Shown here piece after piece: positions 2,136-60,499 of a DNA stretch of 64,000 bases (its first letter is position 1; each line of letters opens with the position of its first letter). The notes beneath the pieces are model-generated. The model was given only the letters and a program-made list of their open reading frames with translations, was not told where the DNA came from and made no database searches. Position numbers and translations under genes: made by a program. Location: the NCBI GenBank assembly GCA_018715125.1, contig DVMF01000007.1, positions 38,452 through 102,451 of the forward strand. The letters are read 5' to 3'. This DNA comes from Candidatus Coprousia avicola. GTDB taxonomy: Bacteria; Actinomycetota; Coriobacteriia; Coriobacteriales; Coriobacteriaceae.

Positions 2136-3646
<1,511 letters not shown>

Positions 3647-3682
3647 CCGCCGGCGCGTGCGGGATCACAGGAACCTGGGCTT

Positions 3683-3726
3683 ACGGGCCGGGCATGGCGA
3701 GCAGGCCATGCCCGGCCCGTTTCCTT
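3683..3726. terminator. Intrinsic terminator between convergent GH1 and lacI
   Basis: Perfect 16-bp inverted repeat ACGGGCCGGGCATGGC/GCCATGCCCGGCCCGT followed by TTCCTT. Confidence 0.7.
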
Positions 3727-26327: not shown

Positions 26328-27383
26328 ATGCATACGTGGACATGGGCAGAGGGCGCGTTTGTGGACGCGCATGCCCGGGAGGCGGCCGGCGACGCGTCAC
26401 CGGCGGGCGAGGGTGCGGCTCCCTGCCCCGTCTCCCGGGAGCCTGATGGGGTGCGGGGAGCTGACGGTGCGTGGGTGCGGGTCAGCGTCGGCGCAGCGGC
26501 AGAGCTCGATCTAGACGAGAGCTCCCCGCTGGTGCGCGAGGTGCTGCGCGACATGCCCCATGCGGCCGTTTCGTATGGAGAGCGCGATGCGTCCAGCGCC
26601 TGCGGCATCGTGGTGGTGCCCGCCGGGAAGGGCCGTCGGCGCGAGGCGGCGCGTTTCGCGTTCGTCCTGCGCCCCCACTGCCTGGCGCTGGTTGAAGACG
26701 GACCGCTCGCCCGGCCTCTTATCGAGCGCCTGGCCGCCGAGGGGGCGCCCGTCGAGGGTCCCGCCGACGCGCTCATGGGACTCATCCGGCTTCTGCTCCG
26801 CGACCAGCCGGCGCTGCTCTCGGGGGTGCGCGAGGACCTCGAGCTCATCGAGGAGGCAGTGCTCGAGGGACGCGAGCGCCCGAACCGCGCCCTCATGATG
26901 GAGGACGCGTGCCGCATGCTCGGGCTCGATACGTTCTACCAGGGCCTTTCGGATATCGTTGACAACATCGCCGAGGAGGGGGAGGGCCTCGCGAGCCCGG
27001 CGGAACGGCTGCGGGCAAAGGCGCTCGCCCGCCAGCTCGACCGGCTCGCGACCCGGCTCGAGGCGCTGCAGCAGTACGGCCTCGAGGTGCACAGCCTCTA
27101 CCAGGAGAGCATCGACGTGCACCAGAACCACGTGATGCAGTGGCTGACCGTCGTGACGACGCTCGCGATGCCGCTCACGTTCATCACGGGCTGGTACGGG
27201 ATGAACTTCCCGCATATGGCGCTCTTCGACGCGACGTGGGGGTACCCGGCGGTCATCGTGGTCTGCCTTGCCATCGTCGCGGCCGAGGTGCGCTTCTTTC
27301 ATCGGCGCGGGTGGCTGCGCTTCGGCGGCGGGCGCCCGCGGCGCGGACGCCGGGATCGGCGGCGCGGCGGGGATGCGGCCTGA
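26328..27383 (+). CDS. CorA-family divalent cation transporter
   Basis: C-terminal LTVVTT..MPLTFITGWYGMNF (GMN motif) and two transmembrane helices. Confidence 0.85.
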   Translation: MHTWTWAEGAFVDAHAREAAGDASPAGEGAAPCPVSREPDGVRGADGAWVRVSVGAAAELDLDESSPLVREVLRDMPHAAVSYGERDASSACGIVVVPAGKGRRREAARFAFVLRPHCLALVEDGPLARPLIERLAAEGAPVEGPADALMGLIRLLLRDQPALLSGVREDLELIEEAVLEGRERPNRALMMEDACRMLGLDTFYQGLSDIVDNIAEEGEGLASPAERLRAKALARQLDRLATRLEALQQYGLEVHSLYQESIDVHQNHVMQWLTVVTTLAMPLTFITGWYGMNFPHMALFDATWGYPAVIVVCLAIVAAEVRFFHRRGWLRFGGGRPRRGRRDRRRGGDAA

Positions 27384-39763: not shown

Positions 39764-41017
39764 CTACGCGATGCGGTGGATAAAGAGGCCGCTTCTGAGC
39801 TTGGGCTCGAACCACGTCGACTTGGGCGGCATGAGGAGGCCCGCATCGGCGACGGCCATGAGCTCGTCGACCGTCGTCGCGAAGAGCGTAAAAGCCGCCC
39901 CCTCGGATCCCGCGCGCCCCTCAAGCTCCGCCGTGCCGCGGATGCCGCCCACAAAGGCGATGCGCGGATCCTCGCGGGGGTCGTCGATGCCGAGGACGGG
40001 ACCCAAGATCCGCTCCTGCAGAAGGGAGACGTCGAGCGCCTCGACAGGACCCGCCTCCCGGGCTGCCGTGCGGATGTCGTCGTGCGCGGTGAGGCGCCAC
40101 CAGGAGCCGTCGGTGTAGAGCCCCATCACGCCGGGCGCCTCAGGCTCAACGGGTGCCGATGCCGGCTCGACGGCGAACCCGGCATCGGCGATCGCGTCGC
40201 AGAGCTCGCGGGCGCTGAGCCCGGCGCGGTCGCGCACCACGCGGTTGTAAGGGAGCACGGTGAGCTCGCTCGCGGGGAAGAGCACGGCGAGGAAGTAGTT
40301 GAACGGCTCCTTGCCGGTGTAGGTGCCGGCGGCCTTCGCCTCCGCGCGCATCTCGTGGGCGACGCGCATGGCCGATGCGGTGCGATGGTGCCCGTCGGCG
40401 ATGTAGGCGCACGGCACGCGGCCGAACATCTCCCGTATGGCCTCGACGCTCTCGGGCCGGCGCACCTCCCACACGCGCTGGCGCACGCCCTCGTCGTCAG
40501 TGAAGTCGTAGAGGGGGGTGGCGCCCTTGGCGGTGGAGAGGATGAACGAGAGCACCGGCTCGTCGCGGTAGGTCAGAAAGATCGGACCGGTCTGGCAGCC
40601 CAGCGCGCGGATATGCGCGGCGCGGTCGAGCTCCTTCTCGGGGCGCGTGTTCTCGTGCTTCTTGATGGTGCCGTCGTCGTACTCGTCGACCGAGCAGACG
40701 CCGACGAGCCCCGTCTGCGAGCGACCGCCCTGCGTCAGTTCGTACAGGTAGTAGCTCATGGCTGGGTCGGGGAAATAGCTATGGTCGTCGAGGCGCTCGC
40801 GGAGAAGCTCCGCCGCGCGCTCGTATACCTCGGGCGCGTACATGTCCTGATCGGGCGGGAACTGCGTCTCCGGGCGATCGATGGCGAGAAACGAGCCCGG
40901 GTGCGCCGCGACGTAGCTTGCCGCCTCCGCGCGGTCGAAGACGTCGTAGGGCAGCGCGGCGGCTTCGGCGGCGCGCTCGGGAATCGGGCGGATGCAGGGG
41001 AACGGCAAGACCTTCAT
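39764..41017 (-). CDS. DUF1015-family protein
   Basis: LPYDV, IKKHENT, YIADGHHR and MPPKSTWFEPKLRSGL; lies downstream of serC-serA. Confidence 0.9.
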   Translation of the reverse strand: MKVLPFPCIRPIPERAAEAAALPYDVFDRAEAASYVAAHPGSFLAIDRPETQFPPDQDMYAPEVYERAAELLRERLDDHSYFPDPAMSYYLYELTQGGRSQTGLVGVCSVDEYDDGTIKKHENTRPEKELDRAAHIRALGCQTGPIFLTYRDEPVLSFILSTAKGATPLYDFTDDEGVRQRVWEVRRPESVEAIREMFGRVPCAYIADGHHRTASAMRVAHEMRAEAKAAGTYTGKEPFNYFLAVLFPASELTVLPYNRVVRDRAGLSARELCDAIADAGFAVEPASAPVEPEAPGVMGLYTDGSWWRLTAHDDIRTAAREAGPVEALDVSLLQERILGPVLGIDDPREDPRIAFVGGIRGTAELEGRAGSEGAAFTLFATTVDELMAVADAGLLMPPKSTWFEPKLRSGLFIHRIA

Positions 41018-56483: not shown

Positions 56484-58220
56484 ATGGGCGCCCATGAGAG
56501 GGACCTCGGCAAGACCGTGGTCTACCAGATCTACATCAAGAGCTTCTGCGATAGCGACGGCGACGGTGTCGGCGATTTGCGCGGCATCACCTCCAAGCTC
56601 GATTACCTCGCCTACCTGGGGGTCGACTACGTGTGGATCACCCCGTTCTTCCCGTCGCCGCAGCGCGACAACGGCTACGACATCTCCGATTACTGCGCGG
56701 TCGACCCGGTCTTCGGCACGATGGACGATTTTGACGAGCTGGTGGCCGAGGCCCGCCGCCGCGGGATCGGCATCATGCTCGACATGGTGCTCTGCCATAC
56801 CTCGAGCGAGCACGTCTGGTTCCAGCGGGCGCTTGCGGGCGACGAGCGGTACCGGAGCTACTATATCCTGCGCGACGGCAGGGGCTCGACCGGCCCCGGC
56901 GACCCCGGTGAGCCGCCGACCAACTGGCAGAGCGCCTTTGGCGGCAGCATGTGGGAGTGGGAGCCGCGCCTTGGCAAGTGGTACCTCCACATGCACGACG
57001 TGACCCAGCCGGACCTCAACTGGGACAACCCCGAGGTCCGCGCCGAGCTCGCGCAGGTGGTGCGCTTCTGGCGCGACCGCGGGGTGGCGGGCTTCCGCTT
57101 CGACGTGGTGAGCCTCATCTCCAAGCCGGAGGTGTTCGAGGACGCCGGTCCCGAAGGCGGGCGCTCGCTCATCGCGGACGGCCCGCATGTGCACGAGTAC
57201 CTGCGGGAGCTGGTGCGCGAGGCGGGTATCGACGGGATGCTCACGGTGGGCGAGATGGCGGCGACCACGCTTGAGAACTGCGTGCGCTACACCAACCCCG
57301 CAAGCCATGAGCTCGGCATGGTCTTCAGCTTCCATCACCTGAAGGTCGATTACCTGAACGGCAGCAAGTGGGCGCTCCAGGACCCCGACATCGCTCGTCT
57401 GCGCGAGCTCTTTTCCACCTGGCAGGAGCGCATGCAGGAGGGGCACGGCTGGAGCGCGCTCTTCTGGAACAACCACGATCAGCCGCGCGCCGTCACGCGC
57501 TTCGGCGGGCGTGAGGGCGTGGGCGAGGCCGTCGGCAGCTGGGAGCTCGCGGCCAAGATGCTCGGCGTCTGTGCGCATCTCATGCAGGGCACGCCCTATA
57601 TCTTCCAGGGCGAGGAGATTGGCATGGTAAACGCCGGGTACGCATCGATCGACGACTATCGCGACGTCGAGAGCCATAACGCGTACCGCACGCTGGTGGA
57701 GGCGGGGTCGACGCCCGCCGAGGCGCTGCACGTGGTGGGCGAGCGCTCGCGCGACAACGGGCGGACGCCCATGCAGTGGACGGATGCGCCGGGGGCCGGC
57801 TTTACGGCGGGCGAGCCCTGGCTCGCGATCCCGCCCTCGTCGGCGCTGGTGAACGTGGCCGCCGAGAAGGGCCGTCCGGGCTCGATCCTCGAATTCTATC
57901 GCGAGCTCGCGCGCCTGCGCCATGAGCTCGCGGTGATCGCCGATGGCCGCGTCCGCTTTATCGACCCCGGTGAGGGGGCGCCCCGTGCGATCATGTTCGA
58001 GCGCTGGCTCGAGGGCGAGGCGGCGCGCGAGGCCGCCGATGCGGGCGCCCCGGTGCGCCTCCTTACGGTGTGTTCGTTTGATGAGGGGGCATCTTCGGTG
58101 GATCTGCCGGACGCCTGGCGCTCGGCCGAGCAGCTCATCGGCAACTACGGCGACGTGCGGCAATGCGGAGGGACGCTTGCGCTCAGGCCCTTCGAGGCGC
58201 AGGTTCTCTGGACGCGCTGA
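56484..58220 (+). CDS. treC: Trehalose-6-phosphate hydrolase (GH13)
   Basis: YQIYIKSF, SPQRDNGYDISDY, QPDLNW, GFRFDV, NNHDQPR and RSRDNGRTPMQW. Confidence 0.92.
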   Translation: MGAHERDLGKTVVYQIYIKSFCDSDGDGVGDLRGITSKLDYLAYLGVDYVWITPFFPSPQRDNGYDISDYCAVDPVFGTMDDFDELVAEARRRGIGIMLDMVLCHTSSEHVWFQRALAGDERYRSYYILRDGRGSTGPGDPGEPPTNWQSAFGGSMWEWEPRLGKWYLHMHDVTQPDLNWDNPEVRAELAQVVRFWRDRGVAGFRFDVVSLISKPEVFEDAGPEGGRSLIADGPHVHEYLRELVREAGIDGMLTVGEMAATTLENCVRYTNPASHELGMVFSFHHLKVDYLNGSKWALQDPDIARLRELFSTWQERMQEGHGWSALFWNNHDQPRAVTRFGGREGVGEAVGSWELAAKMLGVCAHLMQGTPYIFQGEEIGMVNAGYASIDDYRDVESHNAYRTLVEAGSTPAEALHVVGERSRDNGRTPMQWTDAPGAGFTAGEPWLAIPPSSALVNVAAEKGRPGSILEFYRELARLRHELAVIADGRVRFIDPGEGAPRAIMFERWLEGEAAREAADAGAPVRLLTVCSFDEGASSVDLPDAWRSAEQLIGNYGDVRQCGGTLALRPFEAQVLWTR

Positions 58221-58229
58221 TTTTTGTTG

Positions 58230-58257
58230 TTGACAGCCGCGTGGGACTTGCTAGAAT
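58230..58257 (+). promoter_or_regulatory. Strong housekeeping promoter of tRNA-Ala
   Basis: TTGACA-N16-TAGAAT. Confidence 0.75.
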
Positions 58258-58269
58258 TAATCCTCGCTT

Positions 58270-58345
58270 GGGGACGTAGCTCAGCTGGGAGAGCGCTGCC
58301 GTCGCATGGCAGAGGCCGAGGGTTCGATTCCCTTCGTCTCCACCA
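58270..58345 (+). tRNA. tRNA-Ala (anticodon CGC)
   Basis: 76-nt cloverleaf with acceptor stem GGGGACG/CGTCTCC including the G3:U70 Ala identity pair, anticodon stem CTGCC/GGCAG with loop GTCGCAT, GTTCGA T-loop and encoded CCA. Confidence 0.97.
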
Positions 58346-58359
58346 CAAGCCAATCAGCC

Positions 58360-58395
58360 AAACCCGTAGGTTTACCTGCGGGTTTGTTGCTTTTT
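58360..58395. terminator. Terminator hairpin after tRNA-Ala
   Basis: AAACCCGTAGGT/ACCTGCGGGTTT stem followed by a T-rich tract. Confidence 0.6.
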
Positions 58396-58580
58396 AGGTC
58401 CTTCTTGATGAGATTCGGGCGAGGAGCACTTCGCCATGCCCTCGAGCGCCGACTCAAGGATGATGCCCTCCTGGCAGTCCGGCACGTCCTCGGGTCATAT
58501 GCTTGGCATAACAAGTTTTGCCGGTCTTTCAGCCCCTTCCCTCCCGTCGTTGTCAAGCTAGAGGAGGAAAGGGACGGTCT

Positions 58581-59444
58581 CTATTTCAGGATGTCACGCC
58601 ACTCTTCGGGAAAGCGCATCGGTTGCAGCGATACATCGCCATGCTTCGAGATGGCGGCATCAAGTCCGTCGAGCATCAAAGGCCATCGTTTCGGCCACGA
58701 TTGTTCGTAGATTCTTTTGAGCACCAGGAACGTCGGGAATTCTTTGTCGCTATCATGTCTCGTGTCTCGTTTCAGAAGGTTCGCCCTCGTAGTCATGATG
58801 CGGTTATACAGTCGACTGTGGTGGCCACAAATGTTCCTTATGTACGTTAAGTGTCTCAACCAGCTCTTCAGGATGAATGGTTTGACTCCGAACCCGCTGG
58901 CTATCGACTTCGCAACGCCGCTTTTCGCTGAATCAAGGTTGCCGTAAAGCTGGGATACCGTTCCCATACTCATGATTTCAACGGCGGCCCATATCGGAAG
59001 ATCCCCGTATTTTTCGATGTTGTGCACAACGCAGGGGACGCCGTCGCGAAGGGCTCTGTTCCGCTCCCTAGTTAGGGATTCCATGGAATGGGCGTGCGCG
59101 ATGGTGCTTTTGAAGTACCGGTTGTCCTCGTGGGCGAGTGCCCCGCACTCCATCGACATGTGGTATGCGAAGAGGGTGCGCACTTTTATCTCGATGGGCG
59201 CGATGGCCTCCCATACCCACGTGCGCAAAGCGCAGTCAAGTTCGTAGGTATCCCAGATGGAATCAAATGTCGTGCCAGGAATAAACTGACCGTCCAGCTC
59301 GTATGTGAGCCAATACCCGCGCAGCCTGTAATAGTTCGTCTCGGACAGACGCCGCAAAGCCAGCTCCTCGTCGCCGACAGTCAGGCCGCGATTGCGCATG
59401 AGCTCGAGCTGGTCGGTGAACGACAGAGGGGGCTTCAGCGGGAT
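58581..59444 (-). CDS. Abi_2 (AbiD/AbiF)-family HEPN nuclease; expected start codon reads ATC
   Basis: KPPLSFTDQLELMRNRGL, NYYRLRGY, IEI.VRT, PIWAAVEIMSMG.VS.LY and the RNICGHHSRLYNR HEPN RxxxxH motif; AT-richer than the flanks. Confidence 0.88.
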   Translation of the reverse strand: MPLKPPLSFTDQLELMRNRGLTVGDEELALRRLSETNYYRLRGYWLTYELDGQFIPGTTFDSIWDTYELDCALRTWVWEAIAPIEIKVRTLFAYHMSMECGALAHEDNRYFKSTIAHAHSMESLTRERNRALRDGVPCVVHNIEKYGDLPIWAAVEIMSMGTVSQLYGNLDSAKSGVAKSIASGFGVKPFILKSWLRHLTYIRNICGHHSRLYNRIMTTRANLLKRDTRHDSDKEFPTFLVLKRIYEQSWPKRWPLMLDGLDAAISKHGDVSLQPMRFPEEWRDILK

Positions 59445-59446
59445 AG

Positions 59447-59501
59447 AAAACGACCCCGCCTGGTTCGCTCCACTTTCGTGGGTCGCGCGCGGGGTACTGT
59501 C
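59447..59501 (-). ncRNA. abiF-motif-like structured RNA/leader
   Basis: Minus strand reads ACCCCGC...CCAC-GAAA-GTGG...GCGGGGT-CGTTTT, directly between a TTGAAA-N18-AATAAT promoter and the abi ORF. Confidence 0.6.
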
Positions 59502-59896
59502 TAGAGCATTATTGCCCAATCTGCCACATCCTTTCAACTCCATTCGCCGATTCGACATTTGGATTGCGAGATGCAACGCCATTGTAAGTGTCGCACGACC
59601 CTGCAGGGGCGGCAAACCAACGTGCGGCAGCGATCAGGCTGTCATGTGCTATTCCGGGGTACGCGTCAGCCTGAACCGTTTGTGGTTGATGGGGTGGTCC
59701 CGATATGGGAGAATCGTACGCGCAGAGCGTAGCACACTACGAGGAGTGCTTCTGATAGGGGAAACACAGGCGCAGATTCTGTCGTCGCACGGGATCCGCT
59801 CCAGCAATGGGGCGGTGTTTTACTATGAGCTGGACAGTGCCAAGAGGAAAAACCGAGCCCGCCGTGCGCGCCCGGTGCGCAGAGGGGGAGTGCCAC

Positions 59897-60499
59897 ATGG
59901 TTGTGACCGTCGCCGCTGAGCGGGACCTGCCGGCCGTAGAGCGTCTGTACCGAGCGGCAATCGAGGAGATGTGCGGCGCGCCGCATGATGTGTGGTGGGA
60001 GTTTGGCGTGCATCCTAGTCGCGAGGGGCTGCGCGCCTCCGCCTCGCGCGGCGAGCTCATCGTTGCGCGCGATGGCGCGCCCGCCACCGTAGGCGACGGG
60101 GCGGTACCTCAGCCGGAGGCACCGCTTCTCGGCGCCTGCGTGGTTGATGGCGCGCAGGATGCGGGATATCGCACGGCCGCATGGCCCACACCTGCCCCCG
60201 ACCACGAGGTCGCCGTGCTGCACCTGCTCGCGGTCGCACCCGAGGGGCGCGGGCGGGGCGTCGCGCGCCGCTTGGTCGCTGCGGCGGCTCGGGAGGCGCG
60301 CGCCCGGGGCGCCCGAGTGCTGAGGCTCGATGTGTTCGACAACAACGCGCCAGCGATTGCGCTCTACCGGTCCTGCGGCTTTACCGATCTGGGCGCGCGG
60401 GCGTTTGCCTACGACGAGGGCTTCACGCACGGGGCGCACCTCATGGAGCTCGACCTGGGGCTGCCGGGCGCCCTAGACACGACGGTGGTGACACGATGA
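59897..60499 (+). CDS. GNAT-family N-acetyltransferase
   Basis: LHLLAVAPEGRGRGVARRL, LRLDV...N.PAIALYRSCGF. Confidence 0.9.
   Translation: MVVTVAAERDLPAVERLYRAAIEEMCGAPHDVWWEFGVHPSREGLRASASRGELIVARDGAPATVGDGAVPQPEAPLLGACVVDGAQDAGYRTAAWPTPAPDHEVAVLHLLAVAPEGRGRGVARRLVAAAAREARARGARVLRLDVFDNNAPAIALYRSCGFTDLGARAFAYDEGFTHGAHLMELDLGLPGALDTTVVTR

Follow-up and report, generated by a model that had tools for sequence, protein, structure and literature searches.

A candidate AbiF-type toxin module in Candidatus Coprousia avicola with an RNA motif that lies in frame with the Abi gene

What is the short structured RNA that precedes an Abi_2 gene in Candidatus Coprousia avicola, and what does it mean that it lies inside the open reading frame (ORF) of the protein with which it may interact? 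The DNA analysed here, called the window, is a stretch of 64,000 nucleotides (nt) from contig DVMF01000007.1 of assembly GCA_018715125.1 (positions 38,452 to 102,451). All positions given below are those of the window, and promoter, RNA element and Abi gene are all located on the minus strand. A preliminary description, made from the sequence alone, had noticed a HEPN RNase gene with its own promoter and a structured RNA, and had proposed a toxin-antitoxin (TA) or abortive infection module.

Protein, RNA element and promoter

The core ORF of the gene (58581-59435) is intact and comprises 284 amino acids (aa) and a stop codon. A search with the Pfam profile Abi_2 (PF07751), which had been suggested as a check, gave a match of 158 bits (cut-off 25.6, E = 4e-46) over profile positions 3-184 of 184, and the PADLOC profile AbiD was matched over its full length (positions 5-276 of 277, E = 5.5e-74), whereas no NCBIfam family was matched by the protein. 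The only solved relative is PbAbiF of a Prevotellaceae bacterium, the structure of which was determined together with its non-coding RNA (PDB 8VZ6; Zilberzwige-Tal et al., Cell 2025, as reported in PMC12373285 and PMC12737573). Chain 8VZ6_A aligns with residues 1-280 of the window protein (E = 1.6e-25), and PbAbiF has only eight residues ahead of the aligned core. The motif RNICGH (58821-58838) fits the pattern R[NHD]xxxH (Rx4H) and falls in register on RNSCCH of PbAbiF, whose catalytic residues are R210 and H215 (PMC12373285). Profile match and alignment agree with the intact HEPN motif that had been read from the sequence before.

The RNA element starts nine nucleotides past the −10 hexamer and has the sequence AGUACCCCGC-G-CGC-GACCCACGAAAGUGGA-GCG-AACCAG-GCGGGGU-CGUUUUCU. 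Its outer helix is formed by ACCCCGC (59489-59495) and GCGGGGU (59453-59459) and is followed by a bulged G (59488), which is A in most relatives, and by an inner helix of three base pairs (bp) between CGC (59485-59487) and GCG (59466-59468), of which the first pair varies between CG, AU and GU. The terminal loop of 16 nt, GACCCACGAAAGUGGA (59469-59484), holds a hairpin of its own, CCAC-GAAA-GUGG (59481-59470). On the 3′ side, a single-stranded bulge of six nucleotides, AACCAG (59460-59465), is nearly invariant; it reads AACCAG in 34 and CACCAG in 21 of 83 motif variants. By analogy to PbAbiF, it may be with this bulge that the RNA fills the active site of the HEPN domain. The helix abuts a U-tract, UUUUCU (59445-59450, with UUUU at 59450-59447), which is UUUUUU in Collinsella intestinalis, and a U-run is found after the helix in almost all homologues, so that an intrinsic terminator or attenuator is possible at this site. 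RNAfold predicts both the outer helix and the inner hairpin, and the element of about 50 nt with outer stem, tetraloop hairpin and TTTT had already been placed correctly in the preliminary description.

In order to relate this element to known RNAs, a covariance model called R1 was used, which was built from 45 non-actinobacterial motif instances only. On the 64 kb of the window, R1 gave a single significant match, at 59447-59499 (minus strand), with 37.7 bits and E = 1.8e-9 over model positions 1-53. Two weak matches at 27283-27310 and 40888-40968 (minus strand; E = 0.17 and 0.63), partial or poorly paired, are probably due to chance. Among 80 Abi loci that were gathered purely by protein similarity, R1 matches were detected upstream of about 74, at a distance of 25-100 nt before the gene, and all 78 matches in Abi loci are on the strand of the gene. 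In locus L026, a match (1594-1649) lies downstream of the Abi gene (610-1458), the own upstream region of which carries only a degenerate motif; a further, tandem module may be present there.

Across hundreds of loci, the motif is conserved and its helices covary strongly. In an actinobacterial set of 21 variants the outer helix is 99% paired, with compensatory double changes in four of seven pairs, a result matched by none of 500 shuffles. A wider set showed covariation of six of the seven outer and two of the three inner pairs; since this set had been pre-filtered for pairing, only the diversity of its pair types counts as evidence. An unbiased pattern test returned 80 matches, 77 of them with all seven outer pairs, and at least eight different helix sequences were seen (for example ACCCGAC/GUCGGGU, ACCCAUC/GAUGGGU and AGCCGCC/GGCGGCU). 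Covariation in homologous upstream regions, the second check that had been proposed, is thereby present. The loop is maintained in a similar way: in 42 of 43 actinobacterial variants it differs in sequence yet can still fold into a hairpin with 3 bp or more, and only lengths of 13, 16 or 19 nt occur. Relative to C. intestinalis, the 72 nt from the −10 region through the motif (59518-59447) have not changed at all, although synonymous divergence (dS) in the gene is 0.17.

The promoter described earlier, which is conserved and of the sigma-70 type, was picked independently by a promoter scan. It consists of a −35-like hexamer TTGAAA (59532-59537) and a −10-like hexamer AATAAT (59508-59513) with a spacer of 18 nt and reaches 10 of 12 consensus matches; two such sites were found in 2.2 kb, compared to 0.6 ± 0.7 in shuffled sequences. 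A TTGnnn hexamer recurs 16-18 nt upstream of the −10 in homologous loci. The −10 itself encodes different 'amino acids' in the homologues, whereas its DNA fits TAnnnT throughout, and its distance to the motif is 10 nt in 45 of 48 high-GC (guanine plus cytosine) loci. A transcription start at about 59502-59500 is predicted by analogy.

It is therefore likely, as far as function can be transferred from studied relatives, that the locus is an AbiD/F (Abi_2) abortive infection or TA module of the AbiF/AbiFr type with its cognate RNA. This was the core of the preliminary description, and it gained support from the R1 match, the covariation and the homology to 8VZ6. Transcription from the promoter at 59537-59508 would start around 59501, and most transcripts would stop at the U-tract, resulting in an RNA of about 55 nt, while read-through or a longer transcript would deliver the toxin mRNA. 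The RNA would bind and neutralise the AbiF dimer, its AACCAG bulge being placed at or close to the HEPN site. Upon failure of the RNA supply, or by a phage trigger, free AbiF would cut cellular RNA and cause growth arrest. Promoter firing, termination and inhibition of AbiF would in each case follow the model of the characterised systems.

Several observations weigh against this reading. The curated Rfam model of the motif, RF03085 ('abiF RNA', Weinberg et al. 2017, PMC5737381), a search with which had been recommended, gave no match at E ≤ 10, neither in 3 kb nor in 161 nt of the window. The stability of the predicted fold is ordinary, with a minimum free energy of −24.6 kcal/mol compared to −22.8 ± 3.2 kcal/mol for shuffled sequences (z = −0.58). 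Single-sequence folding was set aside as evidence for this reason, and the significance of the hairpin derives from the comparison of homologues only. The U-tract is short and interrupted, and a simple terminator scan calls no terminator here, because the hairpin is branched. A canonical start codon is missing between motif and core in the window copy. The public runs that contain the window, from chicken gut, yielded low-depth contigs that are probably DNA and show no transcript ends. Finally, the contacts between RNA and protein may differ from those of the catalogued motif, since conserved loop nucleotides are absent.

The missing Rfam match was rejected as a proof of absence, because RF03085 finds relatives and R1 finds the window. 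RF03085 does match distant Abi loci (L034, L041 and L043), just upstream of the gene. Its consensus, CCCGCC-A-AGC-CUCUCAACGAU-GCU-CAAAUC-GGCGGG-U, has the layout of the window element: a GC helix of 6-7 bp, a 1-nt bulge, a 3-bp helix (AGC/GCU at the position of the inner CGC helix), a loop, a 6-nt bulge on the 3′ side and U. Also shared is the setting, with a promoter in front and an Abi_2 gene of like orientation immediately 3′. The difference is the conserved loop CUCUnAAC(G/A)AU of RF03085, which in the window is replaced by the self-pairing segment at 59484-59469; it is for this reason that RF03085 misses the window element. Intermediates that retain CUCUC...AACGAU are present (L019-L025 and L105), and the high-GC intermediate L105 reaches 29.5 bits with RF03085, for which the gathering threshold is 37 bits. 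In the opposite direction, a degenerate DNA pattern derived from the window motif, with four pair positions left free, was scanned on metagenome contigs and retrieved low-GC sequences with an 11-nt loop above this threshold. By its sequence, the window element belongs, in a broad sense, to the abiF-motif family; it is only by the curated Rfam model that it is not recognised. The main text of Weinberg et al. (PMC5737381) does not discuss abiF.

One further claim of the preliminary description had to be given up. The purine run GGCGGGG was thought to be a Shine-Dalgarno (SD) sequence hidden by the stem. The run forms the 3′ arm of the outer helix, where substitutions are matched by substitutions in the 5′ arm, which indicates that GCGGGGU is conserved for pairing. 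In addition, the run ends 15 nt before the start position, and low-GC relatives have a canonical AAGGAG with ATG or GTG downstream of the U-run. Spacing, covariation and the location of the SD sequence in these relatives led us to reject occlusion by the stem.

Embedding of the motif in the reading frame

The element had been described as lying upstream of the ORF. It is located 5′ of the conserved core, but the ORF of this clade includes it, in frame. Motif and Abi ORF share frame 0 in 26 of 27 genome loci, which were collected regardless of gene calls, and in 40 of 41 distinct high-GC actinobacterial proteins (Coriobacteriia and Bifidobacteriaceae). By parsimony on the protein tree, at least nine length changes of the loop and at least ten of the linker have occurred, every one of them a multiple of three. 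An antisense ORF as cause of these indels was rejected. In 48 motif loci of other phyla, in contrast, the frames are distributed 18/10/20 without preference, stop codons are frequent, and the core begins right after a start codon. The homologues are annotated as proteins of 312-345 aa; their N-terminal extension, ...DSTPHA-(variable)-ANQAGSF..., results from reading the RNA motif in frame.

The window copy has no ATG, GTG or TTG from the end of the hairpin to the conserved core of the protein, and no stop codon interrupts the frame across the hairpin. C. intestinalis (locus L200) and most close homologues have an ATG after the motif (MKPP...), which in the window is CTG (59436-59438); a near-identical metagenome contig (CTATCCCGATGAAGC) keeps the ATG at this position. 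The statement that the ORF follows the RNA directly thus needs a qualification for this copy. The second candidate, 27 codons upstream of the core, is an in-frame TTG (59517-59519) that overlaps the promoter spacer and −10 region; it is ATG in C. intestinalis and serves as the NCBI-annotated start of the 312-aa form. In comparison to C. intestinalis, both candidate ATGs are altered (ATG to CTG and ATG to TTG) and the U-run is interrupted at 59446, with the 72 nt in between being identical. Translation of the toxin from the window copy is probably low because both ATGs (59438 and 59519) are weakened. Leaderless translation from the motif promoter was rejected, as neither AUG nor GUG is found at the predicted 5′ end.

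The window is not alone in this respect. A start codon after the motif is also missing in the Bifidobacterium longum-type loci ('SQVKPALSF', GTT), in 'group 2' ('SPLPEATTYEEQL') and in L006 (CTT). Since the frame is conserved and post-motif starts were lost in several lineages, the simplest reading, and our leading inference, is that at least some translation of the ORF begins ahead of the motif. The motif promoter cannot supply an mRNA for this, because its transcripts would be without an upstream start.

At this point we tentatively suggest that, in these gut Actinobacteria, the coding sequence of the toxin has taken up the antitoxin RNA motif, a possibility to which we give clearly less weight than to the module itself. 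About 47 nt would then serve as antitoxin, as the first 20-25 or so residues and as a translational operator. The copy folded as AbiF-binding RNA would be made in excess from the promoter whose −10 lies 10 nt upstream, and on the toxin mRNA, ribosome passage and RNA folding would compete. Specific for this clade, the fold within the first 25 or so codons would also hold up ribosomes, as a roadblock or translational operator, when folded or bound by the toxin. If this is true, toxin synthesis and antitoxin folding are coupled on one sequence. Strict conservation of a frame through a structured, protein-binding RNA is unusual.

Here, too, there are observations on the other side. The promoter immediately upstream of the motif is conserved, and no second upstream promoter in the window passed the promoter scan. 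The in-frame upstream start is found at a different position in each sub-clade (−4, −7, −22 or −27 codons), and a search for a conserved proximal in-frame ATG was negative, with 25 of 65 loci in frame 0 and 24 in frame 2.

As to the region in front of the promoter, a TACAAT without −35 at 59586-59581 is a candidate for a second promoter or part of the 5′ untranslated region (UTR). About 100 nt upstream of the promoter (59541-59645, minus strand) can be aligned with C. intestinalis, with about 10% substitutions and an 11-nt indel at 59573, and upstream of 59650 the two sequences are unalignable. Tandem duplication was observed in Gordonibacter sp. Marseille-P2775 (L022:3824-3984), where two promoter-plus-motif units are arranged 114 nt apart, both in frame.

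Public metatranscriptomes were searched for longer transcripts. For the group-2 locus L013, two low-depth contigs covering the 5′ region only reach 75-214 nt upstream of the motif, a weak sign of a longer mRNA. At the B. longum-type locus L128, a same-strand gene further upstream confounds the contigs, and for L152 the search of public runs returned none. At L128, a contig from three chicken-gut metatranscriptome runs joins position 3149 to 3726 and thereby skips 576 nt (192 codons) of abi, which points to a variant in the population whose toxin gene is shortened by an internal, in-frame deletion.

Alternative explanations and orphan copies

The weakened start codons lead to the alternative that survives best, which is that the window copy is silenced or decaying, with toxin production lost in this strain and a function left at most to the RNA. 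The control region of 100 nt differs from that of C. intestinalis by a few changes, two of which remove ATGs and one of which breaks the U-run; the near-identical metagenome variant mentioned above has its ATG, and toxin genes are often inactivated by point mutation. We nevertheless regard decay as rather unlikely. The ORF of 284 codons is intact with all catalytic residues present, and the comparison with the Abi gene of C. intestinalis, the closest relative, gave a ratio of nonsynonymous to synonymous divergence (dN/dS) of 0.11 at dS = 0.17. Other lineages that have lost the post-motif ATG retain gene and frame, and both TTG and CTG are able to initiate translation.

For the next alternative, copies of the motif without an Abi gene are of importance. 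The promoter-plus-motif block, with the loop GAGCG(C/U)CUUCGGCGCG and an intact AACCAG bulge, was also found in front of an ORF of about 150 aa that is similar to Peptidase_M78/ImmA-IrrE (HELIH). This ORF is again in frame with the motif, with no start codon in between. The arrangement was detected in L104:9539-10003, L081, L087, L106, L112, L131, L137, L139, L156, L167, L168 and L194 and in about 25 IMG/VR contigs (L204, L207, L209, L214, L216, L218-L221, L224, L229, L231, L232, L234, L237, L239, L240, L242 and L246-L250), and it is the commonest form of the motif on viral contigs. In L104, genes of the RhuM family and of GmrSD_N/DUF262 are neighbours. This block, found on many actinobacterial (pro)phage contigs, could be a phage-borne decoy antitoxin against host AbiF, comparable to pseudo-ToxI, or a portable 5′ control module. 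Such orphan copies on phage contigs suggest a possible RNA-based counter-defence.

A purely cis-acting leader, attenuator or terminator, without an antitoxin role in trans and without protein contact, would account for the GC-rich helix and U-run between promoter and gene in nearly all loci. In Clostridioides difficile, transcription mostly stops before abiF, which alone counters toxicity in cis (PMC12373285). A plain terminator, however, needs neither the AACCAG/CACCAG bulge nor the 1-nt bulge and the 3-bp inner helix, all of which are conserved across phyla, and the RNA of both studied relatives binds the protein and acts in trans (PMC12373285, PMC12737573). As the orphan copies on phage contigs also suggest an RNA function of its own, we consider an exclusive role in cis improbable.

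The in-frame position itself might be taken to mean that the block is really protein-coding, as the N-terminal part (…DSTPHA…ANQAGSF…) of a longer Abi protein, and that the hairpin is incidental. The conserved frame of the actinobacterial proteins, the annotation of the 312-345-aa forms from upstream starts by NCBI and other callers, the lineages that lack a start after the block and the two metatranscriptome contigs of L013 would all fit. In contrast, third codon positions are invariant among proteins that are just 48-70% identical, and compensatory changes pair a nonsynonymous site in one arm with a synonymous site in the other. Other phyla carry the motif in the 5′ UTR, in all three frames and often with stops, and PbAbiF manages with the eight residues ahead of its core. 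Translation and RNA function are compatible with each other, and it is only as the sole explanation that coding fails; as such, it is very improbable.

That the inverted repeat works as DNA, for instance as operator of a regulator or as a recombination site, can hardly be believed: although covariation alone cannot separate a DNA cruciform from RNA pairing and the joining of the block to an ImmA/IrrE-like gene on many phage contigs could reflect recombination, G-U pairs on the transcribed strand would correspond to A-C mismatches in the opposite DNA strand, the orientation relative to promoter and gene is constant in all 78 R1 matches, the bulge is asymmetric with a U-tract on the 3′ side only, and an RNA-protein complex of a relative has been solved (PMC12737573).

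Judged by sequence features, the module is a one-gene AbiD/F unit on a small low-GC stretch adjoining a tRNA gene in a Collinsella genome. The GC content falls from about 0.70 to 0.51-0.58 over approximately 58200-59800, and one edge of this stretch is formed by tRNA-Ala(CGC) (58270-58345, plus strand; ARAGORN), which is convergent with the Abi gene. The closest genome locus is the one of C. intestinalis, with which the window shares its neighbours: PTS EIIBC, an alpha-amylase-family glucosidase, Abi, GNAT and radical SAM. Integration scars in the form of a tRNA-derived att duplication were not found at the locus. An imperfect direct repeat of 21 nt (81%; 58195-58215 and 59768-59788, plus strand; spacing 1573 nt) surrounds the stretch with tRNA-Ala and abi and may be an insertion scar or chance. 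On the plus strand at 59717-59823, Rfam gave a sub-threshold match to the sRNA SpF41 (31 bits, gathering threshold 52, E = 0.028), which ends in a terminator-like hairpin CCGCTCCAGCAATGGGGCGG + TGTTTTAC (59796-59815) just ahead of the start of the GNAT gene (59807). This element may be a leader, a small RNA or a chance match.

The type of system is already known and was characterised experimentally in 2025, in Bacillota and Bacteroidota. What may be new is the actinobacterial variant missed by Rfam, its in-frame embedding and the orphan copies joined to ImmA, of which some are possibly included in the Cell 2025 paper. The module is widespread in Coriobacteriia and Bifidobacteriaceae, which are common bacteria of the human and animal gut. 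As the Rfam model misses the actinobacterial form, current RNA annotation under-counts it. Furthermore, the variable hairpin loop next to a retained AACCAG bulge shows which parts of the RNA are essential.

Comparison with known systems

The module of the window resembles PbAbiF-AbiFr in the end-to-end alignment of the proteins with Rx4H in register and in a structured, cis-encoded RNA just 5′ of the gene with a single-stranded bulge. In PbAbiF-AbiFr, the nucleotides of this bulge inhibit the RNase (PMC12737573). Differences are the protein identity of only about 25-30%, the hairpin in the actinobacterial loop and the in-frame motif.

With the AbiFCd-RCd22 system of the C. difficile phage phi027, it has in common the order of promoter, abiF-motif RNA, U-rich terminator and abiF gene and an RNxxxH toxin. 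RCd22 carries two abiF motifs behind a SigA promoter, and it neutralises AbiFCd in cis by termination, which mostly occurs before abiF, as well as in trans by direct binding (PMC12373285). The toxicity of AbiFCd requires R and H of its RNQCAH motif (PMC12373285). RCd22 is about 100-130 nt long and has a terminator hairpin that stands apart from its two RF03085 motifs, whereas the window has one motif with a helix that abuts the U-tract. Its transcription starts 168 nt before an ATG with a clear ribosome binding site, compared to no such site and 16 nt to the former start in the window. The tandem units of Gordonibacter recall the two motifs of RCd22.

In relation to RF03085, architecture, most flanking nucleotides and the location 5′ of Abi_2 genes are alike, but the loop in the window has 16 nt and is self-paired, whereas that of RF03085 is the 11-nt CUCUCAACGAU. 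Type III TA systems (ToxIN, TenpIN and CptIN) also combine an endoribonuclease toxin with a neutralising RNA encoded in cis under the same promoter; there, a terminator sets the ratio of RNA to toxin, and abortive infection is the phenotype. The window differs in the fold of its toxin, which is HEPN and not ToxN/Kid-like, and a classical antitoxin array is absent, with a single motif copy and no tandem repeats at 58100-60000.

AbiD1 of Lactococcus lactis belongs to the same AbiD/D1/F family. In the work of Bidnenko and co-workers, translation of the abiD1 mRNA is said to be held down by a 5′ structure and to be activated by a phage protein, so that there, too, toxin synthesis would be governed by structure in the 5′ part of the mRNA. 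To our knowledge, no in-frame RNA motif has been described for AbiD1.

Finally, Cas13 of the type VI systems is likewise an Rx4H RNase of the HEPN type bound by a structured RNA. The protein of the window is distinct from it, having neither spacer nor guide and a single HEPN domain (homodimer), with one Rx4H motif in 284 aa and no CRISPR or other repeat array nearby. Cas13 has been proposed to descend from AbiF (Zilberzwige-Tal et al., Cell 2025, as summarised in PMC12737573), and the replacement of the loop in the actinobacterial RNAs helps to see how a guide could arise from an antitoxin RNA.

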